Source: Chloroflexota bacterium
Lineage (GTDB): Bacteria; Chloroflexota; Anaerolineae; Promineifilales; Promineifilaceae
Length of the DNA stretch: 34,789 bases
Assembly: GCA_046484685.1 (NCBI GenBank)
Contig: JAWOIM010000197.1
Location: forward strand, 1 to 34,789
Direction: 5' to 3'
Shown: piece by piece, positions 1-17,877 of the stretch
Position numbering within the stretch: the first letter of the stretch is position 1
Layout: each line of letters begins with the position of its first letter
Made by a program: the position numbers and the translations under genes
The notes under the pieces: generated by a model
The model's input: only the letters and a program-made list of their open reading frames with translations
Databases searched by the model: none
What the model was told of the DNA's origin: nothing

Positions 1-365
1 CTGGCGGCCAGGTCGTCGGTAATAATGCCGACAATGACGCCCGTTGTTTTGCCCTCCCCTTTCACCACATCGACAACCTGTCCCGTCACTTTGCCGTCAG
101 CTACGCGCTTCCAAAAGTTGTATTTTTGGGTAGTGGTGTCAGCAATATGGCCTATTTGGGCAATTTGATCTGGGCGGGGACCGGTAGAGATGTAGACGGA
201 AACGGCCGTTTCGCTGTACTCGCTTGGTTCATGGTAGAGGTAGAGGGCCTTACCGGGTTTGACGTGTTGCTCGATGATGGCCTGGCGGTCGCTCCCATCG
301 TCATTTTGGAAGCTTACACCCACCACTTTGGTGACAAATGTGTAGTGGTCGCTGTGGTCACTCAT
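1..365 (-). CDS. HIRAN-domain protein, N-terminal part (ORF runs off the left edge, so absent from the ORF track)
   Basis: Reverse-strand ATG at 365-363 gives MSDHSDHYTFVTKVVGVSFQNDDGSDRQAIIEQHVKPGKALYLYHEPSEYSETAVSVYI...GVIVGIITDDLAA. It is open to position 1. The VxGVxF...G..L.L.hEP....A..V pattern is typical of HIRAN domains. Confidence 0.7.
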   Translation of the reverse strand, partial: MSDHSDHYTFVTKVVGVSFQNDDGSDRQAIIEQHVKPGKALYLYHEPSEYSETAVSVYISTGPRPDQIAQIGHIADTTTQKYNFWKRVADGKVTGQVVDVVKGEGKTTGVIVGIITDDLAA

Positions 366-391
366 GATTTCCTGCCAATTTGCTGGCTTAT

Positions 392-446
392 TGTTTCAAA
401 ATGAAACAGTTTCGGGTTGACAAACCCGAATCACCTCGCGTATACT
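392..446. promoter_or_regulatory. Divergent control region: dyad TGTTTCA-AAA-TGAAACA (392-408) plus sigma70-like promoter TTGACA (417-422), 18-bp spacer, TATACT (441-446), facing the HTH gene
   Basis: Read directly from the sequence. It lies between the divergent HIRAN (-) and HTH (+) genes. The dyad half-sites equal the canonical parS half-site TGTTTCA. Confidence 0.55.
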
Positions 447-487
447 TTGCACAACTTGTTTAATTTGCTTATAGATTGGAGATTGCC

Positions 488-688
488 GTGGAAGAAAAAT
501 GGCTCACAACAACGGAAGTGGCTGAGCGGCTAAATGCCACCTCTCAGGCAGTGCGGGATTGGATTCGCGCTAAGCAATTCCCCAACGCGCGGCCAAAAAG
601 CCCGGTGCCCAGAAGTCCTTTTGAAATTCCTGAATCCGATGTATTAGCCTTTGAAGAAAGACGGCGGCAATCCATTCACAATCAGTAG
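488..688 (+). CDS. Excisionase/MerR-type helix-turn-helix DNA-binding protein (Xis or regulator)
   Basis: WLTTTEVAERLNATSQAVRDWIRAKQFP resembles the excisionase-family HTH. GGAG at 478-481 lies 6 nt before GTG 488 (the ORF track starts at TTG 476). Confidence 0.7.
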   Translation: MEEKWLTTTEVAERLNATSQAVRDWIRAKQFPNARPKSPVPRSPFEIPESDVLAFEERRRQSIHNQ

Positions 689-698
689 AAAAGATAAG

Positions 699-747
699 AA
701 AACGGCCGTTCCCCGGTACTCTCGCAAAGTTGGAGAACGGCCGTTTA
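699..747. repeat. Two copies of the iterated palindrome AACGGCCGTT (701-710, 736-745) between the HTH gene and the tRNA fragment
   Basis: gaaAACGGCCGTTcc ... gagAACGGCCGTTta, read directly. Confidence 0.9.
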
Positions 748-782
748 AGCGAACCTTAACAGCCAAATAACTTGACCGTTTG

Positions 783-845
783 AGCGGGCATCGGGATTCG
801 AACCCGAGATGACAGCTTGGGAAGCTGTAGTGTTAGCCACTGATC
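783..845 (-). other. 3' portion of a tRNA-Gly(CCC) gene (D-loop to discriminator), putative attP/att core
   Basis: On the minus strand: anticodon arm ACAGC-TTCCCAA-GCTGT (anticodon CCC), T-arm TCGGG-TTCGAAT-CCCGA, and 3' acceptor strand TGCCCGC plus T. No complementary 5' acceptor strand (GCGGGCA) or D-stem 5' strand lies upstream. It sits next to int. Confidence 0.65.
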
Positions 846-903
846 CAGTATACAAAAAATGGCTGTGTTAGTGGGGTATAAAAGAGATACAAAAAAGTAA
901 CAA

Positions 904-1923
904 TTACGGCTCTTCAAAATACCTTGCCCGCAATTCATCCTCGGTCCGCACGGCATAAACAGCGGCCGTAAACTCCGGACTGCTGTGGCCTAACCAGGCC
1001 GAAACGGTGGCCAGATCATAGCCGCCGTTGAGCTGACGGATGGCAAAACCATGCCGGAAGGCATGAGCGTTGCACCTGGGTGGATCGCCGGCGGCCTGCC
1101 GTAGACGCTTCAATAACGCTGACATACCGTTTCTGGTAAAACGGCCGTTGTGGCGCGTCGTAAACAGTGGCCCGTCAATCCCCGGCCGCTGCTTTATCCA
1201 TTCAGCCAACAAGCTGGCCTCACGGCCCCGGCCGTAGACCCAGCGCGGCTTGGCCCCCTTTCCTACCACGTGAACGGCAAAGCGCCGCTCCCCATCCTCT
1301 TGCCATAACTCAAACCTTCCGGCGTCAGCGTCCATCCCGATTAACTCACTAAGCCGGCAACCGGTGGCCCACAGCGTGGCTACCACCGCCCGGTCCCGCG
1401 ACAGGTCGGCCGCAGCCAGGAGCTTCTCGTAGCTGCCCCGGCTAATGGCTTTCGCCTGGCGTTGATTTTCCTGCAAGTAGGGAACGGCAGCGGCAGGGTT
1501 GATGGCGACGATACCATTGCGTTGCAGTCGGCCGTAAATGGTTCGCAGCGTTCTCAGATAGCTATTAATTGTGACCGGCCGGCAGCTATCGCCGGCAGCT
1601 AGCTCGCATTGCCAGCGATGAATATCTATAGGCGAAACGGCCGTTAGCTCCACATCTCCTAGGAATCGGATCAGGCTTCTAACAGCTACTCCAAACTGAC
1701 GGCGTGTATCGGCGGATATGTCGATTATGCCGGAAGCGTTGGGGGCAGCCAGATCAGGAATGTGAGACAGAGGAATTTGTGCCGTTGCTTGTTTCAGCCA
1801 GTCAATAGCCATAGAGACAACCTCAAAAGTTATTTGGTATCCAACGTTGGATTTTACGGCCGGAAACGGCCGTTTAGTCATGGCGGCGTGGCCTGGTCGG
1901 GGCACGCCGTCTATTTTAATCAT
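904..1923 (-). CDS. int: Tyrosine recombinase / phage integrase
   Basis: ATGCRLSEL..., HAFRHGFAIRQL, LGHSSPEFTAAVYA give the R...HxxR...Y catalytic signature. It is adjacent to the tRNA fragment. The start is uncertain (ATG 1923 or downstream). Confidence 0.9.
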   Translation of the reverse strand: MIKIDGVPRPGHAAMTKRPFPAVKSNVGYQITFEVVSMAIDWLKQATAQIPLSHIPDLAAPNASGIIDISADTRRQFGVAVRSLIRFLGDVELTAVSPIDIHRWQCELAAGDSCRPVTINSYLRTLRTIYGRLQRNGIVAINPAAAVPYLQENQRQAKAISRGSYEKLLAAADLSRDRAVVATLWATGCRLSELIGMDADAGRFELWQEDGERRFAVHVVGKGAKPRWVYGRGREASLLAEWIKQRPGIDGPLFTTRHNGRFTRNGMSALLKRLRQAAGDPPRCNAHAFRHGFAIRQLNGGYDLATVSAWLGHSSPEFTAAVYAVRTEDELRARYFEEP

Positions 1924-2032
1924 CTGCGATTATTTAGCAACTGAGTACATGGAAGTAATCATTGCTTTACTACATTAATAAACAGCAGCACAAACCGAGA
2001 AAGAACATTATTTACACAACACGGAGGCAACA

Positions 2033-2164
2033 ATGTCAAAACTCAATGAATTACAACGCAAAATCAACGAAGCCGCGGCCGCCGGCAACGTAACCGAGGC
2101 TGCTCGTCTGTCGCAAATCTATGTCAAACTGTACAAGGAATTGGAGGAAACGGCCGTATCATGA
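2033..2164 (+). CDS. Small hypothetical protein (43 aa), first gene of the early operon
   Basis: GGAGG lies 6 nt upstream of ATG 2033. Sequence: MSKLNELQRKINEAAAAGNVTEAARLSQIYVKLYKELEETAVS. The stop overlaps the next start (ATGA). Too short for the ORF track. Confidence 0.5.
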   Translation: MSKLNELQRKINEAAAAGNVTEAARLSQIYVKLYKELEETAVS

Positions 2165-3168
2165 TGATTTCACCTGAGCTTAGCAACCCGGCCACCGTGC
2201 TGCACGTCCTGAGCTACAAATCATCGCTGCCGGTTTTGATTGCGATGTGTATGGACGATTGTCCGCGACCGGTCAAGGTCAAATGGCTCGAACGGCGCAC
2301 CGGCATCACCAGGCACACCATCAATGAGAGTCTGATCTACTTGATGGAATCGCTGCAAATCGTCTTTCGCAGCGGCATCAAGCGGGCGTCGGCCTGGTGG
2401 CTGGCCAACGGAATCAGACAGCTACCGCTGCCATTCGTGCAGCATTTATCAGACGCAGACACGAGACCGTTCAACATGCTATCAGATGGACAGCAGATCA
2501 GCGTGGGATCTGACCACCGGACCATCGACGGCGGACCCGGCCGGCCTATTGCCGACCACCGGACCCCCGACCGCGAATCCGGCCAGCAAGCGCACCTGCT
2601 GCCATCCAGCGGCCAGTTGAACGGCTCTCATCATTCAATAATGGTGGATCATCCACCATTAACGCATGTTGTTGTTGATCATAGTATTAAAGATCATGAT
2701 CTTGTAATAAATGATCAACAACAACAAGAGCCGATAATGGTGGAAAATTTACCATTATCGGCCAGCCCCACCCGGCTGTTGCTGCGCTGGATGGGTGTCG
2801 ATGAGCCACTGCCCACCCAATTTGCCGATGCTGACCCGGCCTGGCCGCTGAGCTGCTACTGGTACAGCCAGGTGTGTGGAATGGGCAATCCGGCCGGCTA
2901 CGTGGCCAAGCGGCTGCGGACCGGCCAGGGCTGCCCACGGCCGTGGGCAAAGCTGGCACACACCTGGTTGAGTATGACCACAGAGAATCAGCTTGTCCTG
3001 CTGGATGAGTTGGCCGACCCGTACACGCGGGCAACCGGCCGGATCAGCCTGCCGTCCGATTTTCCGTTTGTGCCCTATCGGGAGGTTTTGCAACTATACC
3101 GGGCGACCGGTGGTGAGTTTGTGCCGGCGGAGATGATGCCTGTGGATAAAGGTGTGGATAACGATTAA
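2161..3168 (+). CDS. Putative replication initiator / winged-helix DNA-binding protein (function inferred)
   Basis: N-terminal wHTH-like segment KWLERRTGITRHTINESLIYLME. A central low-complexity linker (HHSIMVDHPPLTHVVVDHSIKDHDLVINDQQQQEPIMVENLPL) is encoded by the repeat block at 2637-2761. The gene sits at the head of the early operon. Confidence 0.5.
   Translation: MMISPELSNPATVLHVLSYKSSLPVLIAMCMDDCPRPVKVKWLERRTGITRHTINESLIYLMESLQIVFRSGIKRASAWWLANGIRQLPLPFVQHLSDADTRPFNMLSDGQQISVGSDHRTIDGGPGRPIADHRTPDRESGQQAHLLPSSGQLNGSHHSIMVDHPPLTHVVVDHSIKDHDLVINDQQQQEPIMVENLPLSASPTRLLLRWMGVDEPLPTQFADADPAWPLSCYWYSQVCGMGNPAGYVAKRLRTGQGCPRPWAKLAHTWLSMTTENQLVLLDELADPYTRATGRISLPSDFPFVPYREVLQLYRATGGEFVPAEMMPVDKGVDND
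2637..2761. repeat. AT-rich block of nested inverted/direct repeats with five GATC sites inside the initiator-like gene (candidate origin)
   Basis: TAATGGTGGA (2639-2648) / TCCACCATTA (2652-2661). GTTGTTGTTGATCAT (2668-2682) / ATGATCAACAACAAC (2711-2725). AAGATCATGATCTT (2690-2703). CCGATAATGGT (2731-2741) / ACCATTATCGG (2751-2761). GATC at 2647, 2677, 2692, 2698, 2713. Confidence 0.6.
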
Positions 3169-3219
3169 GGCAACAGCACCAAGCCCCGCCAAAAAAAAAT
3201 GATCGATAAGGAGAATAAC

Positions 3220-3651
3220 ATGATTCAGAAACAACAAAGCCTCATCCAATTTGCAGAGTTAGACGACATGCTCAAGGAACTGAATCCCGGCGATGTGGTG
3301 CGAGTGCAGTCCATATGTATTACCGAAGCTGAAGGATACAACGGCCTGGTCTCTGTACGTTGCTGGGGCGTGGCCGTCCGCCACATTACCAAAAAGGGGT
3401 TGATTTTATCTTGCTGGCTCCCTGCTTACCGCACCCAGATTATGGGGCAAAGCGAGAAAGGTAAAGAGAAAAAGGGCTGGGAATTGACCTATGATATGGA
3501 GCAGCAAATTAAACCACATCTCAAAGCATTCGATCTGGATATACGTCCGGGCATTGTCTTTTTAGATTTGGGAGCCAGCTTGCTTGTAAAAGCGAATTGG
3601 GCCAATCGTCCTCAGAAAACGGAGCAAGTTGATGATGGAAATAGCAATTAA
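3220..3651 (+). CDS. Hypothetical protein
   Basis: AAGGAG at 3208-3213 lies 6 nt before ATG 3220 (ORF track start 3199). No recognisable motif. Confidence 0.65.
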   Translation: MIQKQQSLIQFAELDDMLKELNPGDVVRVQSICITEAEGYNGLVSVRCWGVAVRHITKKGLILSCWLPAYRTQIMGQSEKGKEKKGWELTYDMEQQIKPHLKAFDLDIRPGIVFLDLGASLLVKANWANRPQKTEQVDDGNSN

Positions 3652-4288
3652 AGACCGGCCCGGCCCCAGCGCCACTGATGTATCCCAACGAATCATTGAG
3701 CCAGGTGATTTGATGGAATACAGCCGGCGCACATATTTCATCGATGACGACTGTGCCGATCTGGTACGGCCGTATGAGCGGCAGGTGCGGCCGGTGGCGG
3801 TGAAGGCTCCGTTACTGACTGCGCCGGCCCTGTGGCCTCACCGGCCGAAGGAGCAAATTGCTGTGGGTTACGCAGAGTATTTTACTGATGAGCGCTGCGC
3901 GGAGATTGCGCAGCGGGTAAGGGAAGGAGAAAGCTTTTCGTCCGTGTGCCACACCTATGACGCCTCGGCGCCGACCATTAAACGTTATCTGACGCTGGCC
4001 GGCTGGGATTATCTGACGGGATTACGGGCGGTGGCTAAGAAGCGGGAGCAGGCGGACAAGGTTGAGCCGGCGCGTTCGCGCGCGAACATTGAGGAAACGG
4101 CCGTTTCTGTGGCTGAGCCTGAGATGGTGGAGGAAACGGCCGTATCTGTAGCCGATGGCAAAACGGCCGTTTCTGTGGCTGACGGGCTGGATAGATTGAT
4201 TAGCTTACGGCGGCTGACCCAGGAGCTGCAAGCTGCCGGCGTCGGTGTTGAGATCAGCGGGGAAATATCCGTAACATTACGCTTTTAA
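3629..4288 (+). CDS. Hypothetical protein with an HTH-like segment and three ETAVSVA(D/E) repeats
   Basis: Overlaps the previous gene. ESFSSVCHTYDASAPTIKRYLTLAG looks HTH-like. The EETAVSVAEPEMVEETAVSVADGKTAVSVADG repeats are encoded by three copies of the iterated palindrome. Confidence 0.65.
   Translation: MMMEIAIKDRPGPSATDVSQRIIEPGDLMEYSRRTYFIDDDCADLVRPYERQVRPVAVKAPLLTAPALWPHRPKEQIAVGYAEYFTDERCAEIAQRVREGESFSSVCHTYDASAPTIKRYLTLAGWDYLTGLRAVAKKREQADKVEPARSRANIEETAVSVAEPEMVEETAVSVADGKTAVSVADGLDRLISLRRLTQELQAAGVGVEISGEISVTLRF
4074..4087. promoter_or_regulatory. Perfect 14-bp palindrome GTTCGCGCGCGAAC, a variant of the TGTTCGC-NN-GCGAACA dyad family, inside a CDS
   Basis: Read directly. It ends 3 nt before the first 26-bp ETAVS repeat unit (8 nt before its AACGGCCGTT core at 4096). 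Confidence 0.35.
4091..4182. repeat. Three ~26-bp direct repeats, each carrying the iterated palindrome, inside a CDS
   Basis: gaggAAACGGCCGTTTCTGTGGCTGA (4091-4116), gaggAAACGGCCGTaTCTGTaGCcGA (4131-4156), caaAACGGCCGTTTCTGTGGCTGA (4159-4182). Confidence 0.85.
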
Positions 4289-4290
4289 GC

Positions 4291-4322
4291 AAAAAGGCCG
4301 GTGTGTGACCACCAGCCTTTTT
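4291..4322 (+). terminator. Rho-independent terminator-like hairpin after CDS 3629..4288
   Basis: AAAAAGGCCGGTG-tgtgac-CACCAGCCTTTTT: 8-bp GC-rich stem with one mismatch, flanked by an A-run and a T-run. Confidence 0.6.
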
Positions 4323-4337
4323 AGAGGGAATCTTTTT

Positions 4338-4826
4338 ATGCAAAGACAAATGGATACTACCACTGTCACTACGATTGAACAAATATACCAACCAGGCGCA
4401 GCCTGGCTCAATGACGCTCTGGCCGACATCGTAGCCAGGCAGCCTGGCTACGTCTATTTGCTCCACCTGGCAGAGCCTATCGGCCAGCGGCAATCAGCAG
4501 CAGCGCGGGCAGCCCACGGCCTACCCCCTAGACAGAAGCAAAACTACAGGCCAACTGCCAGGCATTACCTGGGATGGTGTAAGGACCTGGCAGCGCGTAT
4601 GCAGGCCCACCAACAGGGAAACGGCAGCCGGTTTATGGCGGCCGCGAAACGGTCTGGGGTTGATTTTCAAGTAGTGCGCGTTTGGGTCGGGGATCGGGCA
4701 TGGGAACGGCAGCTAAAGGGGCGCAAAAATGCTCCCAGGCTTTGCCCGATCTGCAATAGCCCCATCCAGCGCAGTATTTTTGAATTAACGCCAGCCCAAA
4801 TTGAATACGAACTAATTGGATTCTAG
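4338..4826 (+). CDS. GIY-YIG-like nuclease-family protein (tentative)
   Basis: GYVYLLHL ... RHYLGWCKDLAARMQAHQQGNGSRF ... ERQLKGRKNAPRLCPIC. GAGGGA lies upstream of ATG 4338; the ORF-track start 4305 falls inside the terminator hairpin. Confidence 0.5.
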   Translation: MQRQMDTTTVTTIEQIYQPGAAWLNDALADIVARQPGYVYLLHLAEPIGQRQSAAARAAHGLPPRQKQNYRPTARHYLGWCKDLAARMQAHQQGNGSRFMAAAKRSGVDFQVVRVWVGDRAWERQLKGRKNAPRLCPICNSPIQRSIFELTPAQIEYELIGF

Positions 4827-4835
4827 GAGACCACA

Positions 4836-5237
4836 ATGACCCAACCAATAGCAGTTTCGCGAACCCCCGAACAGCGCGATGTGTGGCAGAAAGTCTTCGG
4901 CCGGCACTGGATGTACCTGGCCGATGATGTGGCGCGTTTTGCCGAGTTTCCGGACCACGGCCCCACCTTGTTCTATCTGCTGGACCTGGATCGGATAACC
5001 GACAATCAGATGACGGCGGCCGTCGAACATCTAGCCAACAAATTTGACCTTGACCTTGATCAGGTGCGGGCAGACATACAACAGCTTGGCCTACCGGTCC
5101 TGGTAGAAAATGTGGACGTTTGGTTTGCCTCACCAATAGAAGATATTACCCGCTATAACTCGCCTTGCCGGTGTGGTTTTGCGGGCAGACTGCCGGCCGG
5201 CTCTGATTGCCCGGCCTGCCAAAAGGAGACGAATTAA
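4836..5237 (+). CDS. Hypothetical protein with a C-terminal Cys cluster
   Basis: GGAG lies before ATG 4836. C-terminal CRCGFAGRLPAGSDCPACQ looks zinc-ribbon-like. Confidence 0.65.
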   Translation: MTQPIAVSRTPEQRDVWQKVFGRHWMYLADDVARFAEFPDHGPTLFYLLDLDRITDNQMTAAVEHLANKFDLDLDQVRADIQQLGLPVLVENVDVWFASPIEDITRYNSPCRCGFAGRLPAGSDCPACQKETN

Positions 5238-5238
5238 C

Positions 5239-5754
5239 GTGACTGACAATTTCACCATTACCGGCGTAAAAAAAATCATGGTACATCACGATTCGGGCGC
5301 AACCCGATTCGACAGCGACATCGAACTAATGGCCGCCATGCGTGGCATTGACCGGCACACGCTGGCCAACGCATTAGGACTTTTTCATCTCGGTCGCGAG
5401 TTGGAGGATGATATGGAAGGAGTCGCTTGCTTTCTGCAAGCGGCCGGGGCTGATGTGGTCTGGGTGCTGCGCGGCGCACAATATGCCTCACTGGCTTACG
5501 ACTTCAATCAATGTCCGTATTGTGACAGCCAGATCGAAATGGAGCCACTGGACCCAATAAACGACACATTTCAATGTACCGGCCTGGATCAACACCAGTT
5601 CCATATAAGCGACTTGCCTCATGGGGCCGAATTGCAAATAGCAGGCTCCCAAGCAGCCCCCCACCCCATGGTCATTTTAGCCAGGCTTCCGGCCGGCGAT
5701 AATGGTCCGGCTGGAATTTCATTTTATGGTGAGACAAAAGGAGGTGATGCTTAG
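5239..5754 (+). CDS. Hypothetical protein with a CxxC motif
   Basis: AAGGAG at 5223-5228 precedes GTG 5239, right after the previous stop. The ORF-track start 5173 would overlap the previous gene by 65 nt. Contains CPYCDSQ. Confidence 0.55.
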   Translation: MTDNFTITGVKKIMVHHDSGATRFDSDIELMAAMRGIDRHTLANALGLFHLGRELEDDMEGVACFLQAAGADVVWVLRGAQYASLAYDFNQCPYCDSQIEMEPLDPINDTFQCTGLDQHQFHISDLPHGAELQIAGSQAAPHPMVILARLPAGDNGPAGISFYGETKGGDA

Positions 5755-5817
5755 CGATTTGACACCAGACCACTGCCACCCTAACTGCTTATGGTCCTCT
5801 TCCTGGCAGTGGTCACA

Positions 5818-5877
5818 GAAACGGCCGTTTTCTGGCAGGATGATTGGCAACCCCTAAATGGAGAAAACGGCCGTTTT
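5818..5877. repeat. Two intergenic copies of the iterated palindrome (5820-5829, 5866-5875)
   Basis: agaAACGGCCGTTttctgg ... gaaAACGGCCGTTtttt. Confidence 0.9.
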
Positions 5878-5888
5878 TTACAAACAAA

Positions 5889-5930
5889 TAGCCCGCCTGG
5901 CAAATGGCTAACGGGCCACCAGGCGGGCTA
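5889..5930. repeat. Intergenic hairpin with 12-bp perfect arms
   Basis: TAGCCCGCCTGG (5889-5900) / CCAGGCGGGCTA (5919-5930), 18-nt loop, no T-run on the + strand. Confidence 0.6.
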
Positions 5931-5997
5931 AATCCAAACGGATTGTGCTGATTCTAGCACAGTCTGTCAATTCTCAAAGAGAGACAGAGAGGCAGTT

Positions 5998-6528
5998 ATG
6001 ACAGACATTATTAGTTTTGCGTTTACGTTCATGTTGTTTTTGGTAGATATATTCACGCTGTTTTTGATCGGCGGAATATTCTACATCATCGGTCTGGCCA
6101 TTCATACGATGGCCAGCAACCGCACGCCAAGATGGGATTCCATCTTCTACGTGCTGGTGATCTTGATGATGGCCATATGGCTGGTGCGCTGGTATCCAAC
6201 CCAGATAATCAGCAGCGTGCGTGTGTCGATGCAGGAGAGCCGGCCAGAAGCGGACCTGCTCCGTACTGAGGTACAGTATTGGCTGCCCGGCCTGGACCAG
6301 TGGCAGCCAACCCCGACCTGGGAACCGGCCCCGGCCGCTGCCCCGGTCGCGCCGCCGGCAGCCGACAAGATACCAGAGGAGGCCGTCGAGGTGCCACAGC
6401 CTCAACCTACGGAAACGGCCGTTTCACCCACGCCTATACCAACGACCACACCTACGGCCGTGGCCACCTTCGACCCGCACACCTGGAATCCGGCCACGCC
6501 GCCGCCCACACCGGAGAGACGACAATGA
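5998..6528 (+). CDS. Integral membrane protein with a proline-rich C-terminal tail
   Basis: Three hydrophobic helices (FAFTFMLFLVDIFTLFLIGGIFYIIGLAI; IFYVLVILMMAIWLV). The tail is rich in P/T/A. Confidence 0.7.
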   Translation: MTDIISFAFTFMLFLVDIFTLFLIGGIFYIIGLAIHTMASNRTPRWDSIFYVLVILMMAIWLVRWYPTQIISSVRVSMQESRPEADLLRTEVQYWLPGLDQWQPTPTWEPAPAAAPVAPPAADKIPEEAVEVPQPQPTETAVSPTPIPTTTPTAVATFDPHTWNPATPPPTPERRQ

Positions 6529-6908
6529 AACAGCGATTGATTGACCTCCGCGAACTGATGTGGGATCGGCCTGAGAACCGGCTGATCAGCATCTCACTGT
6601 TTGTGTTTTTCTGGACTGGTCTAGCCATCGGCCTGCTGGTGTTGGGGTGGTGGCTGTGGCCGGTGGCGTGGACCGACGCGACGCCGGCCCATCTGGACCC
6701 GACCTACCGCACCATCTACCTGCGCCAGACGGCCGACCTCTACGCCTACGAGCAGGATCCTGATCGAGTCATTGAGGCCCTGCTGCACTGGCGCGGCGAC
6801 CGGGCTGCCTGCGACCTGGCCCGCCAGGTCGCTGATCCGGCCGAAAAGGCACGGCTTGTGATGACGGCTTATACGATCAATGGCATCGGTTGTACCTGGG
6901 AGGATTGA
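6525..6908 (+). CDS. Single-pass membrane protein
   Basis: ATG 6525 overlaps the previous stop (ATGA). MKQRLIDL...ISISLFVFFWTGLAIGLLVLGWWLW. The ORF-track start 6279 lies out of frame inside the previous gene. Confidence 0.65.
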   Translation: MKQRLIDLRELMWDRPENRLISISLFVFFWTGLAIGLLVLGWWLWPVAWTDATPAHLDPTYRTIYLRQTADLYAYEQDPDRVIEALLHWRGDRAACDLARQVADPAEKARLVMTAYTINGIGCTWED

Positions 6909-6909
6909 C

Positions 6910-8124
6910 ATGGAACTGACAGATACCCGCATCGGCATCATCTCATTCGCGTTCATGGCAGGTTTGATTGCCACGCAGACGCTGATCCAGGCTGGCCTTA
7001 TTACCGCTCTGGTCGTTGGCCTGATGCTGGCCTACGTGCGCGGCTGGCTGACCGGAATCCTGAGTTACCTGGGGCCGCTGGTCTGGCGGCTGCTGGCCTG
7101 GCTGCGCTCATTTATGGTAAAGCCAGTAGATGAAGAGGCATTGTATGACCGCTATGACATATTGCTGGGGCGCGACCCGCTGACTGGCACGCCAGATGTA
7201 GAGAACCTGTCTGACCTACAGCATGTTGGGGTTTATGGCACAACCAGGTTCGGCAAGACGACTTGGCTACGTTCCATCCTGCACCATCTCATCAGTCACC
7301 ACCGGCCGAGTGAGCTGCGCCTGGTCATTAGCGATCCCAAGCAGCTAGATTATGCCATCTATTCCAACTTATCGTTTCTGATGTGCCCCATTGCCAAAAA
7401 CAGACGCGAAACGGCCGTGGTGATCGAGATGTTGATTACCGAGATGGAACAGCGGCAGGTGTTGTTTGGCGAGTTTGCCACACGCGATCTGTGTGACAAT
7501 CTGGATCGGTATATAGAGCTAAGCGGCCAACAGCTACCGCGTGTGGTGGCCATATTTGACGAATTGGCCGATGTTGTCGAGCCTGGCAGCAAGGCCGAGG
7601 CTGATCTAATCCGCCTGGCCAAAATGGGTTTGGCGTTCGGAATCCAATTGATTCTGGGTACGCAACGGCCGTCAAGCAAGGTTGTGACTGGTGAGATCAA
7701 AAGTCAAATGTCATCGAAGCTCGTAACCTGGATGCCGACGAGCCGTGAGTATGGCGTGGTGGCGGAGATACCTAAGGAGATGTATCAGGAAATGCCGAGA
7801 CAACGAGGCCGATTTATGGCCTATACGTCGAAGGGCTGGCGCTTTATGCAGGGTCGGCAAGTGCCAGATCGTCAACTGGTGGCATTGGCACGGCGGATGA
7901 GTGGCCGGCCGCGCCGCTGGCCCAGCACACCGGCCGGCGAAACGGCCGTTTCGCCATCGCCTGAATGGGATGGTGGCGATGAGGACAAAATGGAGTTAAT
8001 CCGCCAATTTGCCGCTGAACTACATAAACGGCCGTCTATCAATGAAACGGCCGAGCGATTTGATGTGAGCCGGCCAACGGCTATTAAATACCTGAAAATG
8101 ACGCTGGGAGAGGCTGAGGGGTAA
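6910..8124 (+). CDS. FtsK/SpoIIIE-family DNA translocase ATPase with N-terminal TM helices and a C-terminal HTH
   Basis: Walker A GTTRFGKTT, Walker B VVAIFDELAD, and LILGTQRPS (the FtsK TQRP motif). N-terminal hydrophobic helices. C-terminal FDVSRPTAIKYLKM. GGGAGGA lies before ATG 6910. Confidence 0.85.
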   Translation: MELTDTRIGIISFAFMAGLIATQTLIQAGLITALVVGLMLAYVRGWLTGILSYLGPLVWRLLAWLRSFMVKPVDEEALYDRYDILLGRDPLTGTPDVENLSDLQHVGVYGTTRFGKTTWLRSILHHLISHHRPSELRLVISDPKQLDYAIYSNLSFLMCPIAKNRRETAVVIEMLITEMEQRQVLFGEFATRDLCDNLDRYIELSGQQLPRVVAIFDELADVVEPGSKAEADLIRLAKMGLAFGIQLILGTQRPSSKVVTGEIKSQMSSKLVTWMPTSREYGVVAEIPKEMYQEMPRQRGRFMAYTSKGWRFMQGRQVPDRQLVALARRMSGRPRRWPSTPAGETAVSPSPEWDGGDEDKMELIRQFAAELHKRPSINETAERFDVSRPTAIKYLKMTLGEAEG

Positions 8125-8146
8125 AGCACAGGCAAAAGGTATGTTG

Positions 8147-8235
8147 TTTTACCCCCTACCTCTGGGGTTTACCCCATTTGACTACCCTATTTGACTACCT
8201 GCTTTACTACCTGATTGACTATGAATTTGACTACC
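8147..8235 (+). repeat. Array of about seven direct repeats (TTTACCCC x2, then TTTGACTACC-type x5) directly after the FtsK-like gene
   Basis: TTTACCCC at 8148 and 8168. TTTGACTACC at 8177, 8190, 8226. TTTACTACC at 8203. ATTGACTATG at 8214. Spacing is 11-13 bp. Confidence 0.8.
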
Positions 8236-9219
8236 TGGATTCCTACGCTGATTGTGATTTTTGCGCCGCCGCTGGCCGTGCTGCTGCTGCGCCGTCGCTG
8301 GTTGGCCTGGCGTCGGGCACGCATTAGCGGCCTGCTTATATCTATGTGGCTGGTCTCGCTGATGCCGGTGTGCAGCGTCATGGTAGAGATCGTTGCGCTG
8401 ACGATTGTGGCGCATGAAGCCGCGGCTCAGGATGTTCGCACGCGAACAATGTCGGCATCTGTTCACGATGAACAGATCGCGGCGGCCGCCACGCGCCACC
8501 AGGTGGACCCGCAGTTGGTGGCGGCCATTATCGAGGTAGAGAGCGCCGGCAATGAAACGGCCGTTTCGCCGGCCGGTGCGCTGGGCATTATGCAGATTAT
8601 GCCTGATACGGCCCGGGACCTGGGTCTGCAACGGCCGTTTGATGCCGGCGACAACATCGAGGCCGGTACGCGCTATCTGGCCTGGCTGATTGATTATTTT
8701 GGGGGTGATGTGGAAACGGCCGTTATGGCCTACCACGGTGGCCCCGGCCGGCTTCAGCGCAGCGGGCCGCGAGACATTGACCGGGAATATTTGCGACTGG
8801 TGCAGGTTGCCTATGAGCGGCAGCCGGTGGGCACCGTCCGGCTGCCTTATGCGCCAGGCACGCTCTACACGGCAATGGACAATTATCCGCATGGTGATGG
8901 CAACTGGCCCGGCCGCGACTTCCTGGCCCCCTGTGGCTCGCCGCTCCTCAGCCCTCTGGACGGCTGGGTGGAACGCACCGGCCGTGATTCCTATACCGGC
9001 CCCTGGGGCAGCGAGAATACCTATTTGCTTATTACGGCCGGTGAGGTTGAGGTGATGATGATGCACGGCCGTTACTCGGTGGCGGCCGGGCAGCGGGTGC
9101 AGCAAGGCGATTTGATAGGATTTGTGGCCAATGAGGGTAACAGCTCGCAGTGTCATGATCATATATCGGTGAGAGTAAACGGCCGTTTGGTCGATATTTT
9201 AGGTTTATTAGCAGATTGA
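8215..9219 (+). CDS. Membrane-anchored bifunctional murein hydrolase (lytic transglycosylase SLT domain plus M23 peptidase domain)
   Basis: IIEVESAGN...GALGIMQIMPDTA is SLT-like. GRDFLAPCGSPLLSPLDG ... GDLIGFVANEGNSSQCHDHISV is M23-like. Hydrophobic N-terminus. The start is uncertain (TTG 8215, ATG 8221 or ATG 8449). Confidence 0.8.
   Translation: MTMNLTTWIPTLIVIFAPPLAVLLLRRRWLAWRRARISGLLISMWLVSLMPVCSVMVEIVALTIVAHEAAAQDVRTRTMSASVHDEQIAAAATRHQVDPQLVAAIIEVESAGNETAVSPAGALGIMQIMPDTARDLGLQRPFDAGDNIEAGTRYLAWLIDYFGGDVETAVMAYHGGPGRLQRSGPRDIDREYLRLVQVAYERQPVGTVRLPYAPGTLYTAMDNYPHGDGNWPGRDFLAPCGSPLLSPLDGWVERTGRDSYTGPWGSENTYLLITAGEVEVMMMHGRYSVAAGQRVQQGDLIGFVANEGNSSQCHDHISVRVNGRLVDILGLLAD
8433..8448. promoter_or_regulatory. 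Dyad TGTTCGC-AC-GCGAACA inside the hydrolase ORF, immediately before in-frame ATG 8449
   Basis: Exact reverse-orientation copy of the 16-mer found at 12031, 21304, 31445 and 34533. Confidence 0.4.
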
Positions 9220-9233
9220 AAAGGAGTATGACG

Positions 9234-10217
9234 ATGCAATATATAGGACTTGATCTCGGTTTTGGTAATATCAAAATTTTTTCAGAGCAAGGCGGCCTGG
9301 TGCTGCCCAGCCACGTGGCCACTGCCGGCCAGGCCGTGACGGTTGCGGCTGATGACGGATTGCACACCGGTAAACGCCCTGACCTGGTGGAGCTGGACGG
9401 CCATCAATTTTATGTGGGCACGGCTGCCCACAGTTGGGGGCGGCCCATCGAGGCGCTGGATTACGGCCGGCTGCACGGTGGGCCGGAAATCCGGGCACTG
9501 GTGTACGGTGCCCTTTCGGCCCACGAATGTGATGGGCCGGCCACCTTATACGTTGGGCTGCCGTTGGAGCCATTGAGCGGCGATGCAGCCAACGTGGCGG
9601 CGACGGTGGCCAGCATCCGGGAATGGCTCTGCGGCCGCCACGCCTGGCGCATTAACGGCCGTTCGCGGCAGATTGAGATCGCCGCCGTGAAAATTAGCAG
9701 CCAGCCGGCCGGCGCGTACTTTGATTACCTACTAAACAACGACGGCCGGCCGCATCCGCAGCGGGCCGGGCTGATCAAGGAGGAAGTGGGGGTGGTTTCG
9801 CTGGGATTCAACACGCTGGAACGGCTGGTATTACGTGAGGGTGAAATTGTGCAGCGATTTACGGCCGGCAGCACAAGCGGGGTACGGCGGCTGCTGACGT
9901 TGCTCAATACTCAGGGCGATTACACGCTGGGTGAATTGGATGATTTGCTGCGCTCCGGCGGGCTGCATGAGGATCGGCTGAACCCGGCCCTGGATACCTG
10001 GGGCCGTGAGGTTGTCGGTCAATTGGAGGCAACCTGGGGCACGAATTGGCGGCGTTTCGGCCGTATTCTATTGGTCGGTGGCGGTGCCTTAATCCTGAAC
10101 GGTCGTTTGATGCCAGTCTTTCGCGGCAAGGCAACATTGGCCAGCGACCCGGTATTGAGCATTGCCAAAGGGCTGTATAAGCTGGCCCTATTCCACCAAC
10201 AGCGGGGGCAGGCATGA
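9234..10217 (+). CDS. parM: Actin-like segregation ATPase (ParM/StbA family)
   Basis: MQYIGLDLGFGNIKIF (phosphate-1 motif), VGVVSLGFNTLE, ILLVGGGALIL. AAGGAG at 9221-9226 precedes ATG 9234. Confidence 0.75.
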   Translation: MQYIGLDLGFGNIKIFSEQGGLVLPSHVATAGQAVTVAADDGLHTGKRPDLVELDGHQFYVGTAAHSWGRPIEALDYGRLHGGPEIRALVYGALSAHECDGPATLYVGLPLEPLSGDAANVAATVASIREWLCGRHAWRINGRSRQIEIAAVKISSQPAGAYFDYLLNNDGRPHPQRAGLIKEEVGVVSLGFNTLERLVLREGEIVQRFTAGSTSGVRRLLTLLNTQGDYTLGELDDLLRSGGLHEDRLNPALDTWGREVVGQLEATWGTNWRRFGRILLVGGGALILNGRLMPVFRGKATLASDPVLSIAKGLYKLALFHQQRGQA

Positions 10218-10453
10218 GTGCAGGACGGCCGTCGCTGGATTGTGAGGTTCATGTGATCCGCATCGCTCTGTCTTTGCGAACCGGTGAAGACAATGACCTG
10301 ATCCAGTGGTTTGAATCGCTGCCGCCGCGGGGTCGCAGCGCGGCTGTAACTGCGGCGCTGCGATCTGGTGATGGGGTTCAGGCATTTGAAACGGAAACGG
10401 CCGAAGTTGATCCCGCAGCCCTGGAAATGGCTTTTTCCGATCTGACTTTTTAA
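10214..10453 (+). CDS. Ribbon-helix-helix protein in the ParR position
   Basis: ATGA overlap with parM. VIRIALSLRTGEDNDLIQWFESLPPRGRSAAVTAALRSG fits a beta-strand/helix/helix RHH pattern. Confidence 0.55.
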   Translation: MSAGRPSLDCEVHVIRIALSLRTGEDNDLIQWFESLPPRGRSAAVTAALRSGDGVQAFETETAEVDPAALEMAFSDLTF

Positions 10454-10463
10454 TAGGGAATGT

Positions 10464-10500
10464 TTGTTACAAAAAATAAGATAGTAATTTTTTGTAACAA
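10464..10500. repeat. AT-rich inverted repeat after the parMR-like pair (terminator or operator)
   Basis: TTGTTACAAAAAAT (10464-10477) / ATTTTTTGTAACAA (10487-10500), 9-nt loop. Confidence 0.6.
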
Positions 10501-10514
10501 CTCAGGATGGCAAC

Positions 10515-10730
10515 ATGAAACGAATGACAGATGATTACGTCCACATTCGCCATAGAATGACGTTGAAACCATCACATGATTACATGCGATTATTGGAAGC
10601 CCTGGCCGAATTCTGCCGGCATAATCCAACTGTGTCAGAGCATTTGGATTGGTTTCTCCGAGCGTATGCTGATGAGGACTGGGCCAGCGCCAGCGCCAAA
10701 CAGAAGGAAGGATTAAATGAACATCTTTAA
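10515..10730 (+). CDS. Hypothetical protein
   Basis: ORF with an AGGATGG upstream purine run; no motif recognised. Confidence 0.55.
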   Translation: MKRMTDDYVHIRHRMTLKPSHDYMRLLEALAEFCRHNPTVSEHLDWFLRAYADEDWASASAKQKEGLNEHL

Positions 10731-10899
10731 TTTACTCTGGTTTATCGTCGGCTGCGCCAGTGGCTATGTGGCGACATTGATGATCATATTTATTATGACG
10801 GTGGATAGAGACGGCCGTTTGCCCTACGAACCGCCGGCCATTAAATGTGAGTATATGATCGGTGTCAATGGCCAAAACGGAGAAAGTCATGAACGATGA
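10717..10899 (+). CDS. Small membrane protein
   Basis: MNIFNLLWFIVGCASGYVATLMIIFIMTV is one TM helix. Overlaps neighbours at both ends. Confidence 0.55.
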   Translation: MNIFNLLWFIVGCASGYVATLMIIFIMTVDRDGRLPYEPPAIKCEYMIGVNGQNGESHER

Positions 10900-11227
10900 A
10901 TCTAAATTAGCCTGGATACTACGCCAGTTGATTACCAGCGAAACGCCAAAGAAACGGCCGTTACCGCACGGGTTGGCACTCTCCTGGCATCCCGCTGGTG
11001 ACGACGGCATTTGTGAATTATGGATTGGGAGGCGTGACAGCCAGCCGTCCGAGCAGGAAGATCGAACTGTGCTGGGCGAATTGGCCGCGGCCGCCAAAGC
11101 AGAAGGTCTGACAATCGCTGAGATGCGAATGTCACCGGGTCAGCATATTCGAGGCCGGCGCGGGTCATATGGCGTCACCATTTTTCGCTTTCGCCTATAC
11201 AAGCAACCGCCATTGCCATTGAGTTAA
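10889..11227 (+). CDS. Hypothetical protein
   Basis: GGAGA lies 5 nt before ATG 10889 (ORF-track start GTG 10862). Confidence 0.6.
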   Translation: MNDESKLAWILRQLITSETPKKRPLPHGLALSWHPAGDDGICELWIGRRDSQPSEQEDRTVLGELAAAAKAEGLTIAEMRMSPGQHIRGRRGSYGVTIFRFRLYKQPPLPLS

Positions 11228-11233
11228 TGTGTA

Positions 11234-11251
11234 ATGTTTGCACGCAAACAT
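11234..11251. promoter_or_regulatory. 8-2-8 dyad ATGTTTGC-AC-GCAAACAT, 2 nt upstream of the parB-like Shine-Dalgarno
   Basis: Perfect arms. GGAGGA at 11254-11259, ATG at 11263. The outer TGTTT/AAACA matches canonical parS TGTTTCACGTGAAACA. Confidence 0.55.
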
Positions 11252-11262
11252 ACGGAGGAATT

Positions 11263-11922
11263 ATGAGCCTTTACGACATACCCTTATCTATCATCCGAGA
11301 TAACCCCTGGCAAACACGCCTGGCCATCGACCCCGATCACGTTGCCGAATTGGCGGCTGACATCAAACGCAATGGTCTGCTGCAGCCGGCCGTGGGCCGC
11401 GTTGTCTTCGACACGGCTGCCGAATTCCGCATTTTGTCCACTGACGATGTGAAAAAGCTAAACGAGACCGATATGTTGGGCAGCCAGCGAGGGATATACG
11501 TGCAGCTGGCCCTGGGCCACAATCGCCGGGCTGCGTTTGGCGTGCTGGCCGCTGACGAGCCGGACAAATACGGCCGTCTCCCCATCCAGATCGGCTACTA
11601 CACTGACGAGCAAATGGCCAAGATGGCCTGGTCCGAAAATGAGCAGCGCCTGGACTTATCGCCGCTGGAAGAGGCCCAGGCCATCCAGAAGGCCATGACC
11701 GACTTCGGTTGGTCCCAGGCCGCGGCCGGTGAGAATTTCGGCCTCGGCCGCGCCACCGTCGCCAATAAGCTACGCCTGCTCAAATTGCCAAGCGAGGTTC
11801 GGGAGCAGCTCCACAGCGGCCAGATCAGCGCCCGCCAGGCGTCGGCAATGCTGCCACTCTACAGCCTGCCCGAATCGGCCCTAAGCTGGGCTGAAGACAT
11901 TCACTCTCGGCTTCCGGAATGA
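11263..11922 (+). CDS. ParB/Srx-fold N-terminal domain protein with HTH (ParB-like partition/regulatory protein)
   Basis: NGLLQPAVGRVV and LALGHNRRAAF (ParB N-domain motifs), then GLGRATVANKLRLLKLPSEV (HTH). GGAGGA RBS. The ORF-track start 11227 overlaps the dyad. Confidence 0.75.
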   Translation: MSLYDIPLSIIRDNPWQTRLAIDPDHVAELAADIKRNGLLQPAVGRVVFDTAAEFRILSTDDVKKLNETDMLGSQRGIYVQLALGHNRRAAFGVLAADEPDKYGRLPIQIGYYTDEQMAKMAWSENEQRLDLSPLEEAQAIQKAMTDFGWSQAAAGENFGLGRATVANKLRLLKLPSEVREQLHSGQISARQASAMLPLYSLPESALSWAEDIHSRLPE

Positions 11923-12027
11923 GCAGGCAGCCATCGTGTGCCTATGCTGTGGCCTCGGCTCAGCCAACATCGGCGACATTGAGAGCCGATATTGTGGCTT
12001 TTGTAATGCGTTCCATTAACAACAAGA

Positions 12028-12240: not shown

Positions 12241-12615
12241 ATGTACACTATGTATACGAACGGCCGTTCTTATATCCGCACTACCGACCACAGCCGGGCT
12301 GCAACCTGGCAACGGATTTTCGGCACCGACCGTCTCCCGGTCCGGGCTGACCAGCCGCGTTGGATTTGTGACCGCGCCGGCGAACGGCTGGTCTACGATC
12401 TCGATATGTCCCAAATGCCGGGGCCAGCCGTCCACTGTTTGGCGGCACATGTGGCACGCCTGGCACGGCAGCCATACATGTTAGTGCTGTCGGATATTGA
12501 GTCGAGGGGATTCTGGGTGGATGCAGCAGACTGTTGGGTGGAAGAGGAAACGGCCGTAGATAAACGGCCGTTTTTTCTTTACCCTGATTTTGTGGGGGGC
12601 TATGCCTATGCCTAA
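12241..12615 (+). CDS. Hypothetical protein (first gene of the late block; start uncertain)
   Basis: ORF 12232..12615 has ATGs at 12241 and 12250, just after a TATAAT at 12236-12241. No SD. Its end overlaps the HNH gene. Confidence 0.5.
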   Translation: MYTMYTNGRSYIRTTDHSRAATWQRIFGTDRLPVRADQPRWICDRAGERLVYDLDMSQMPGPAVHCLAAHVARLARQPYMLVLSDIESRGFWVDAADCWVEEETAVDKRPFFLYPDFVGGYAYA

Positions 12616-13083: not shown

Positions 13084-13569
13084 ATGTCAACTCCTGGCAG
13101 GAAACCTAAACCAACTCGATTGAAGGAAGCCCAGGGCAACCCTGGGAAACGGCCGTTACCGAAACGAGAGCCGAAACCACAGACGGAAGTCAAGCGGCCC
13201 TGGGGTCTGGGGCAGGGGGAACAGCGGAAGTTCTGGGACCAGCACGCCGGCGAGTTGGAGCGGCTGGGGGTGCTGACGGGGGTGGACACGGCTGCCTTCC
13301 GGCTGATGGCTGAGCATTATGCGTTTGCGGTGCAGGCCGCGAAGGAATTGAGGGCGGAGGGAACGCTGACAGTGGAGGGCCGGGAGGGGCCAAAGAAACA
13401 CCCGTTGCTTCAGGCGCTGCGTGACAACAGCCTGGCCTTCAAGGCGTATGCGACCGAATTCGGGATGACGCCCTCCAGCCGGGCGAGGTTGCACTTGCCG
13501 CCGGAAGCGGAGCAGCTCAGTATAGCGGATGCGCTCTTCCGGGCGGTGGAGGAAGCGATTGATGAGTGA
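13084..13569 (+). CDS. terS: Terminase small subunit (P27 family)
   Basis: GRKPKPTRLKEAQGNPGKRPLPKREP ... GVLTGVDTAAFRLMAEHYA ... FGMTPSSRARL. Confidence 0.85.
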   Translation: MSTPGRKPKPTRLKEAQGNPGKRPLPKREPKPQTEVKRPWGLGQGEQRKFWDQHAGELERLGVLTGVDTAAFRLMAEHYAFAVQAAKELRAEGTLTVEGREGPKKHPLLQALRDNSLAFKAYATEFGMTPSSRARLHLPPEAEQLSIADALFRAVEEAIDE

Positions 13570-17136: not shown

Positions 17137-17877
17137 TTACAGACTAAGCTCTTCTAGTCGGCTCCATATAGCCAGGCGCTCTAAACGGGGCATTCGTTGC
17201 AAACCATCAGCCCATCGCTCTGCCTTACGTTTTATTCTTTCCCGCTCTCTGAAATTGTCACCTAGATGACTGTAATCGTGCAATCGTTTTGGTTCTGGGT
17301 AGTTCATCCACAGATACTCTTTAACTGGCCGCCCACTGCGAGTATAGGTGTCGAAGCACGTTGTATTCCAGTTGCTTAAGTATTGTTTATAAAGGGGACT
17401 GTTATAGCTGGAGATAGCTACCATGCACGGCAGTTCCTGAATAATTCCCAGCAGGCTGGCATGTTCTTTTTGCGTGGCAAACTCATGTCGATACAACGGA
17501 CGGTGACTGCTACGGGTCTTCATAAGGTATGGTGGATCAAGGTAGACAAACTCACCGCCTTGAAACGAATAGTTAGCCAAAAAGTCTAATGCGTTTTGGC
17601 GTTGGAACCACCAGGTAACATCGTCACTTATGACGGTGGCCGCGCCTATCGTCAAATCTGGCGATTGGTGCCGGCCGCTATCGCTAGATTTAACGATGTC
17701 GCCGGCAGTCGCCCGCAGTGCCTCAAGGTCCAGGTCAATGCCGATGTTCATTTGTGCCGGCCGCTTGTTTAGAGCGACTGCCCCCCCTCCCAGAAATGGT
17801 TCTATGTAAGTGGTGTGAGGTGGTATTAAGTTGATGATTTTTTGGTATAGGTTACCTTTTCCGCCTGGATAGCCCAT
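17137..17877 (-). CDS. DNA N6-adenine methyltransferase, Dam-like (D12 class), orphan
   Basis: YPGGKGNLYQKIINLIP...YIEPFLGGGAVAL (AdoMet motif) and VYLDPPY (catalytic DPPY). No adjacent endonuclease. Confidence 0.8.
   Translation of the reverse strand: MGYPGGKGNLYQKIINLIPPHTTYIEPFLGGGAVALNKRPAQMNIGIDLDLEALRATAGDIVKSSDSGRHQSPDLTIGAATVISDDVTWWFQRQNALDFLANYSFQGGEFVYLDPPYLMKTRSSHRPLYRHEFATQKEHASLLGIIQELPCMVAISSYNSPLYKQYLSNWNTTCFDTYTRSGRPVKEYLWMNYPEPKRLHDYSHLGDNFRERERIKRKAERWADGLQRMPRLERLAIWSRLEELSL

Follow-up and report, generated by a model that had tools for sequence, protein, structure and literature searches.

The subject of this study is a contig of 34,789 bp with a GC content of 56.8%, hereafter the window, which represents a temperate, siphovirus-like phage with a Chloroflexota host, and within it a 125-bp AT-rich island (2637..2761, 34% GC) that lies inside an open reading frame (ORF) of 335 codons (2161..3168, plus strand), a putative replication initiator gene. 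Judging from the sequence, we propose that the island and the palindromes flanking it form a replication origin of the phage, bound by the phage's own initiator and placed in the linker-coding part of the initiator gene, and we give this reading a probability of about 0.7. A first-pass annotation of the same DNA had suggested an origin embedded in the initiator gene, and the suggestion held in every computational test that we ran, covering selection on the DNA, layout in homologs and comparison with lambda. To our knowledge, nothing has been learned from experiments about how Chloroflexota phages replicate.

The island occupies 0.47–0.60 of the length of its gene and, among all 130-bp duplex stretches in the window, has the lowest stability. 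Its left edge carries site A1 (2638..2662), the palindrome TAATGGTGGAT-c-ATCCACCATTA, which we propose as an iteron for a dimer of the gene's own product, and its right edge carries site A2 (2730..2762), GCCGATAATGGT-N9-ACCATTATCGGC, a proposed second binding site. The two are 96 bp apart, about nine helical turns, and both match TAATGG-N11-CCATTA without mismatch, a pattern with no other match in the window. Four repeat copies in two inverted pairs had been described here. We recovered three full copies with the 96-bp spacing (ATAATGGTGGA at 2638 and 2734, TCCACCATTA at 2652–2661), but the fourth is partial (ACCATTAT at 2751–2758), so that the second pair is GATAATGGT-N9-ACCATTATC and not a full copy. 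Between the sites lies an exact 15-bp inverted repeat, GTTGTTGTTGATCAT/ATGATCAACAACAAC at 2668–2682/2711–2725, just as annotated before; it extends to CATGTTGTTGTTGATCAT/ATGATCAACAACAACAAG with 18-nt arms (2665–2682/2711–2728), a 28-nt spacer and one mismatch, and is our candidate for a DNA-unwinding element. The palindrome that it encloses, AAGATCATGATCTT (2690..2703), is the dyad centre of the island. Five GATC sites, at 2647, 2677, 2692, 2698 and 2713 (cluster 2647..2716), each stand in a GATCAT or ATGATC context. When folded as single-stranded DNA, the island formed three hairpins with an energy of -41.9 kcal/mol (z = -12.4). A search inside the island for a promoter or a terminator found none. 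We rejected the idea that its motifs are operator sites scattered over the genome, since every one of them is unique within the window.

The domain architecture of the encoded protein was examined using an AlphaFold2 model built on 22 sequences. The model comprised an N-terminal winged-helix domain (residues 1–105, nt 2161–2475) and an all-helical C-domain (residues 200–330, nt 2758–3150), each with a predicted local distance difference test score (pLDDT) above 90, and between them a disordered linker (residues 108–196, nt 2482–2748) with pLDDT below 50, in agreement with the low-complexity linker read earlier from the translation alone. Because the encoded linker is disordered between two confident domains, the island is predicted to sit exactly where the protein tolerates arbitrary sequence and where coding constraint is weakest. 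Foldseek comparison of the N-domain with the PDB gave generic winged-helix matches, the best being the centromere-binding protein TubR (E = 0.74), and the C-domain fold had no PDB match. Against BFVD, weak two-domain matches to phage helix-turn-helix (HTH) and replication proteins were obtained, with a best E of 8e-4.

Codon choice in the island departs strongly from that of its surroundings. We found that 34 of the 43 island codons end in A or T, compared with 15.6 predicted by the amino acids together with the codon usage of the phage, and that GC content at third codon positions is 0.21 in the island against 0.68 (P = 4e-10). In a codon alignment of the window gene with five homologs, positions sharing an amino acid with a homolog also shared the codon in 87% of cases within the island, compared with 43% in the N- and C-domains (Fisher P = 4e-9). 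These sequence comparisons indicate that selection in the island acts on the DNA and not on the peptide. The linker-coding region also contains two 34-nt GC-rich direct repeats, GACCACCGGACC..., placed 42 bp apart (2512..2587, plus strand) and encoding DHR(T/P). Codon identity over these repeats was 0.39, not above that of the domains, so we treat them as a peptide feature or as neutral; they probably act as a linker peptide repeat and not as DNA sites. The idea that they are a second class of DNA site was unsupported, as their synonymous sites are as free as those of the domains. Two related loci, L001 and L002, have two to three DHRP(L) peptide repeats at a spacing of 42–45 bp, the copies showing synonymous differences, and a host partner may recognise the repeat as a short linear motif.

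Related loci are labelled L001–L012 below, and individual relative proteins P0003, P0020, P0022 and P0024. A word-indexed protein search returned only two homologs; another two, in Chloroflexota metagenome-assembled genomes (MAGs), came from scanning species-representative genomes. Five closer homologs were read, namely L001–L004, at about 35–50% identity, and L010, at 31%; the closest relatives come from MAGs labelled Ardenticatenaceae, Anaerolineae and Chloroflexota. The homologs that were read keep the island, an outcome in favour of the first-pass annotation, for which loss of the island from homologs would have counted as refutation. L001–L004 preserve the order of site, GTTGTTG..GATC core and site at the same places as in the window, with cores of GTTGTTG..GATC.. 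and ..TGATCAACAA, and the dip from AT-poor to AT-rich sequence occurs at the same place. The central 14-mer AAGATCATGATCTT is identical in L002 and L004. In L010 the core is related to that of L004 and is accompanied by two unlike palindromes.

The flanking 23-bp palindromes of L001–L004 have the same geometry as those of the window and carry other bases at half-site positions 5–6. The half-sites are TAATGG/CCATTA in the window (two sites), TAATGC/GCATTA in L001 (two), TAATCC/GGATTA in L002 (three) and TAATTC/GAATTA in both L003 and L004 (two each, the left half of the second L003 site being degenerate). Among these 11 sites, five of the nine symmetric position pairs change on both sides, and 86.9% of cells pair in the site alignment, compared with 26–47% when the partner column is slid; the observed covariation score was reached by none of 500 shuffles. 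The outer TAAT/ATTA is invariant, variation is confined to positions 5–7, and G-U pairs account for 2 of 99 cells. Distances from site to site are 42, 93, 96, 105, 106 and 126 bp, near whole helical turns. Such in-step change would be expected of the recognition sites of a dimeric protein that evolve together with the protein.

The findings above were extended to a wider family with a HMMER search, using a three-sequence profile of which the window protein was a founding member. The search returned 165 proteins at E <= 1e-3, made up of about 20 full-length relatives and many that have the C-domain only. The C-domain (profile positions ~190–325) is matched by proteins with other N-domains at E = 1e-11 to 1e-20, and the relatives with the C-domain only usually have a DnaA_N tail after it and other N-domains before it. 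Almost all linkers of relatives contain tandem peptide repeats and a run such as VVVV..QQQQ, DDDD..HHHH or VVV..TTT. These runs are the in-frame reading of (GTT)n/(AAC)n, (GAT)n/(ATC)n and (GTA)n/(TAC)n inverted repeats, respectively, and a crude peptide search found such a trace in 21 of 50 relatives and a peptide repeat of at least three copies in 24 of 50. The complements of (GTT)n, (GAT)n and (GTA)n appear to be free of stop codons in every frame, which would explain why AT-rich inverted repeats within an ORF are trinucleotide repeats.

DNA was then fetched for six more distant relatives (L005, L007, L008, L009, L010 and L012), and the linkers of all of these other than L010 were found to hold about three to eight palindromic iterons and an AT-rich trinucleotide inverted repeat. 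In L005, AGATCGGAA-N3/4-TTCCGATCT recurs seven times with a period of 42 bp, and the inverted repeat is TTGTTGTTGTTGTTGAT/25/AACAACAACAACAACAA. In L007, TGCTGAA-N3-TTCAGCA occurs in five copies plus one around AACATGTTGTTGTTGTTG/14/..., and in L008 there are two copies plus one of GGTAAATTTTCACC around ATGATGATGATGTTGTTA/14/.... The L009 array repeats CTAATGGCGGA-T-TCCGCCATTAG eight times, again every 42 bp, and L012 carries about five AAACCCGTCAT/ATGACGGGTTT together with (GTA)3..(TAC)3. Trinucleotide inverted repeats lie at 0.41–0.56 of the gene in L002, L003, L005, L007, L008 and L012, with related cores in L004 and L010, and the longest inverted repeats of the fetched relatives are mostly in the linker, at about 0.3–0.58 of gene length. 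L002 and L009 have an additional shorter inverted repeat near the 3' end, and in L001 a scan found no inverted-repeat arm of at least 12 nt. The conservation of position and layout extends to relatives with about 23% protein identity.

Members of this family are linked to known replication initiators of the O-like and DnaA_N types. DnaA_N (PF11638) was detected in 19 of 50 relatives, exceeding the Pfam cut-off in P0003 and in the L003 protein, and one relative is named 'DnaA N-terminal domain-containing protein' by NCBI. In P0020, P0022 and P0024, which share the C-domain, the N-domains match the PHROG families 'replication initiation O-like' or 'replication initiation protein' (phrog_391 at 5e-19), and phrog_26369, 'replication initiation protein', is matched at its end by the DnaA_N tails of relatives. 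L012, where the encoded protein is one of these O-like ones, has the same linker of iterons and inverted repeat. A literature search found no description of this protein family.

From these features we infer origin function itself, and with it the steps of binding, melting and helicase recruitment, which might proceed as follows. Dimers of the 335-residue protein would bind A1 and A2 through the N-terminal winged-helix domain, the two sites, about nine helical turns apart, bracketing the 34%-GC core. Binding would destabilise the core, perhaps aided by transcription through the gene as in lambda, and the (GTT)n/(AAC)n inverted repeat in the core could melt or be extruded as hairpins. The helical C-domain, which in many relatives is extended by a DnaA domain-I-like tail, would then recruit the host helicase and replisome. 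The phage presumably relies on host machinery, having no recognisable helicase, primase or polymerase of its own; none was present among the window ORFs scanned, as the first-pass annotation had also observed, and among the ORFs at 3199–6908, downstream of the initiator gene, there was no match to a P-like or DnaC-like helicase loader.

Several observations count against an origin of this kind. Searches for initiator families left the window protein without a match in Pfam, PHROG or NCBIfam, and reached O-like PHROGs and DnaA_N through the relatives that share its C-domain. Homology to lambda O was not detectable (hhalign probability 0.2%), and the DnaA_N tail is absent from the window protein and, by tblastn, is not encoded elsewhere in the window. 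Palindromic sites number only two here, whereas lambda has four and some relatives up to eight. The cumulative G-C curve has its minimum at 2773, near the island, but this minimum is weak and confounded by the switch of gene orientation at ~1930–2030, and as skew follows gene orientation we gave it little weight. Finally, in-step change alone cannot separate the site of a protein dimer from a hairpin in RNA or single-stranded DNA.

That last point bears on the explanation that the constraint is on the mRNA, with the three hairpins regulating translation or stability of the initiator transcript, for instance as targets of RNase III. The folding is indeed very strong (z = -12.4), the in-step changes preserve pairing, and an Rfam search gave sub-threshold matches to generic long-hairpin models. 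However, these matches were to plant microRNA hairpin models only and fell on both strands, no known RNA family was found, and neither strand is more symmetric than the other. G-U pairs are nearly unused, and TAAT/ATTA is invariant while positions 5–7 alone vary, as in a protein recognition site; arrays of up to eight palindromes in relatives, with a centre of 1–3 nt and a 42-bp period, also point to DNA-binding dimers and not to RNA stems. We judge an mRNA role distinctly improbable. Somewhat less so, though still unlikely, is that the winged-helix protein binds the palindromes for partition, as the centromere of the ParM-like and ParB-like genes, or for autoregulation or immunity, and not for initiation. 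Phased repeat arrays are typical of plasmid centromeres, genes for an actin-like relative of ParM (9216..10217) and for a ParB-HTH protein (11227..11922) are present in the window, ParB-HTH genes adjoin or lie near the homologous gene in L009 and L005, and the best PDB match of the N-domain is the centromere-binding TubR, a generic winged-helix similarity. Against partition stand the annotation of relatives with DnaA_N tails and lambda-O-like N-domains as replication initiators, an AT-rich inverted repeat between the sites that has no obvious role in a centromere, and the recurrence of the layout in L012, L007 and L010, where the short DNA available contains no partition gene. A better candidate for a centromere is also at hand in the AT-rich stretch at 10431–10570 between the ParM-like and ParB-like genes, inside which a perfect 14-bp inverted repeat, TTGTTACAAAAAAT/ATTTTTTGTAACAA, lies at 10464–10500; this stretch hints at a plasmid-like state.

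Absence of any function, with the disordered linker simply accommodating low-complexity sequence or a mobile palindromic insertion, is very improbable. Such a linker is tolerant, and repeat number does vary among relatives, but relatives of only about 23% protein identity still show the layout at the same position, synonymous substitution is held down (P = 4e-9), the two halves of the palindromes change together and no target-site duplication adjoins the island. Least credible of all is that the island serves as attP, where the phage attaches to the host chromosome, or as some other recombination site for the adjacent tyrosine integrase (904..1923, minus strand). The distance of ~0.7 kb to the integrase gene and the AT-rich sequence with inverted core-like and flanking repeats resemble attP. 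However, the integrated prophage L004 keeps the gene and the island intact beside its integrase gene, and its cellular genes (UvrD-like helicase, DinB-like and AAA ATPase) begin just beyond the integrase, so that the crossover site is on the other side of int; the gene is likewise intact beside cellular genes in L012, and a search of the window and of L001–L004 for tRNA genes found none. With gene and island unsplit in the L004 prophage and in L012, we excluded attP. Of these readings, an initiator-bound origin is the one that we prefer.

We also examined the five GATC sites, which the first-pass annotation had connected to a phage Dam-type methylase and to gating of initiation as at oriC. All five are present within 70 bp, where about 0.27 would be expected (the earlier figure was ~0.3); the window as a whole has 135 GATC sites against 124.9 expected from shuffles, so the word is neither avoided nor enriched. 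Five sites in 70 bp occurred in 2 of 300 first-order Markov simulations, although the sites are not independent because they are located in inverted-repeat arms. GATC is enriched in the origin region of the window, L001, L002, L004, L005 (15 sites against 0.69 expected) and L010, and is not enriched in L003, L007, L008 and L009. With enrichment lacking in 4 of 10 loci, the GATC cluster recurs in some lineages, in part because the GTTGATCA arm brings it along, and does not define the family.

The methylase gene (17137..17877, minus strand) lies between the terminase and portal genes and encodes a D12-class N6-adenine DNA methyltransferase (PF02086, E = 1.4e-14), which agrees with the enzyme class proposed earlier; as a Dam it falls short, scoring 49.8 bits with TIGR00571 (dam) against an NCBIfam cut-off of 114.85. 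Among PDB entries it matches only DpnM, weakly (2dpm; catalytic region, E = 1.2e-6), and a second adenine-specific methyltransferase (E = 8.6e-4). The motifs FLGGG and DPPY are visible, and motif I (residues 27–33) is separated from DPPY (114–117) by ~80 residues, a gap that we take to be shorter than in canonical Dam. No methylase homolog was present in those parts of the other loci that were fetched. Since the methylase is below the Dam cut-off and GATC enrichment is absent in 4 of 10 loci, gating of the origin by GATC methylation is possible but speculative, and in the form first claimed, as at oriC, it found no support.

A more inclusive hypothesis is that the window protein belongs to an undescribed family of Chloroflexota phage and prophage initiators, defined by a winged-helix N-domain of its own, a helical C-domain and, in some members, a DnaA domain-I tail, and having a fixed linker-encoded origin layout of 42-bp-phased palindromic iterons flanking a stop-codon-free trinucleotide inverted repeat, to which some lineages, this phage among them, would add gating by GATC methylation, the writer being a methylase of the phage other than a canonical Dam. 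We offer this combination tentatively and think it unlikely to hold as a whole. If it did hold, an origin outside the Proteobacteria would be under methylation control in the absence of SeqA, a protein known only from some Proteobacteria.

Soil and wastewater are rich in Chloroflexota, which are difficult to grow in culture. If the proposed origin is real, the 1-kb segment 2161–3168 would be a self-contained cassette of initiator plus origin, a possible seed for a plasmid vector for these bacteria and a first handle on the replication of their phages. The family offers about ten natural variants of protein and site, a ready-made specificity series, and shows that a strongly symmetric DNA element can be encoded in a disordered linker by means of trinucleotide repeats whose complements lack stop codons. 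The peptide traces, tandem 14-residue repeats and VVVV..QQQQ, are a possible key for finding in-gene origins in metagenomes.

The remainder of the window has the gene content of a tailed phage. Structural and packaging genes were identified for small and large terminase, portal, protease, major head protein, tape measure and holin, and a scan of the genes placed an HTH_17 excisionase-like gene at 476..688. An HNH endonuclease gene (12590–13015) lies directly upstream of the small terminase gene (13084..13569), an order familiar from cos packaging assisted by HNH enzymes. Downstream of the initiator-like gene, two genes without an assigned function (3199–3651 and 4305–4826) are conserved in related loci, with counterparts at 4734–5339 and 4269–4724 in L003 and at 11992–12381 in L004; one of the two contains GYVYLLH...HYIGW, which resembles a GIY-YIG nuclease motif and has no Pfam match. 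The early region of this tailed phage also holds an FtsK/SpoIIIE-like ATPase gene (6880..8124) next to a gene for a lytic transglycosylase and M23 peptidase (8215..9219), both within 6880–9219, a pair commoner in conjugative elements of Gram-positive bacteria. Besides its integrase, the phage encodes the ParM relative and the ParB-HTH protein mentioned above. At the left end, a minus-strand stretch free of stop codons (1–395; 131 residues within the first 480 nt) runs off the contig and by eye contains HIRAN-like sequence (GVSFQNDDGSDRQAII...). The contig ends share 7 nt only (CTGGCGG).

Public runs that share words with the window were soil metagenomes, represented by assembled contigs from diverged relatives. 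A megablast search of window positions 1–12000 against GenBank phages gave no match, and a protein-pattern search of IMG/VR and JGI metagenome contigs gave no related loci. A separate observation concerns a palindromic octamer, ACGGCCGT, with the extended consensus GAAACGGCCGTTTC. No other 8-mer is as common in the window, where it has 61 copies against 0.8 expected, at positions that include 202, 702, 737, 2150, 4097, 4136 and 4163. The octamer occurs in all three reading frames, is often translated as ETAVS, and has a density of 0.9–2.2 per kb in every related Chloroflexota locus (L001–L010 and L012), including the cellular parts of L004 and L012. It resembles the highly iterated palindromes of other genomes, here one particular to the host lineage, and a literature search found no description of it.

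Compared with known systems, an origin inside the gene of its own initiator has precedents outside lambda. SPP1 oriL in gene 38 and the lactococcal phages TP901-1 and Tuc2009 have initiator-bound repeats inside the coding sequence of the initiator; these involve other protein families and hosts, and direct repeats dominate there, whereas the island consists of palindromes flanking an inverted-repeat core. Functional GATC clusters are found in E. coli oriC, with SeqA, and in plasmid P1 oriR. The window shares with them the concentration of GATC sites in or beside the AT-rich unwinding region and a methylase gene of the Dam class in the genome, and differs in the low Dam score of that methylase and in the four loci of its family that lack enrichment. 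DnaA domain I, phrog_391 and phrog_26369 are matched by the tails or N-domains of relatives that share the C-domain, and the window protein has neither.

The closest comparison is lambda (NC_001416). Its four annotated iterons (ATCCCTCAAAACGAGGGA and variants) are palindromes at 0.39–0.46 of gene O and encode a low-complexity stretch of the protein; they are followed by a 40-bp AT-rich tract and then by a 12+4+12 inverted repeat at 0.55 of O. The origin has been described as lying in the middle of O, and Stx phages with six iterons and 13 extra residues have been described as well (PMC7466680). Several differences are apparent. The sites of the island flank the AT-rich core on both sides, whereas lambda has a one-sided array of four; phasing in the window family is 42 bp or multiples of a helical turn, compared with 20–24 bp in lambda; and the inverted repeat of the island, unlike that of lambda, is inside the AT-rich element and made of trinucleotide repeats. 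The window also lacks the P-like helicase-loader gene that follows O in the lambda O/P module, and lambda has no GATC cluster. The arrangement of ori-lambda inside O, with which the first-pass annotation had equated the island, is nevertheless matched in layout, even though the proteins are not demonstrable homologs. Both elements lie mid-gene in their own initiator, between a DNA-binding N-domain and a C-domain, and both combine palindromic iterons, an AT-rich tract and an inverted repeat. In lambda as in the window family, iteron number varies among relatives and so adds residues to the protein or removes them, and replication relying on host enzymes is probably a further likeness. Lambdoid O proteins and their iterons show the same co-evolution of protein and site that we propose here.

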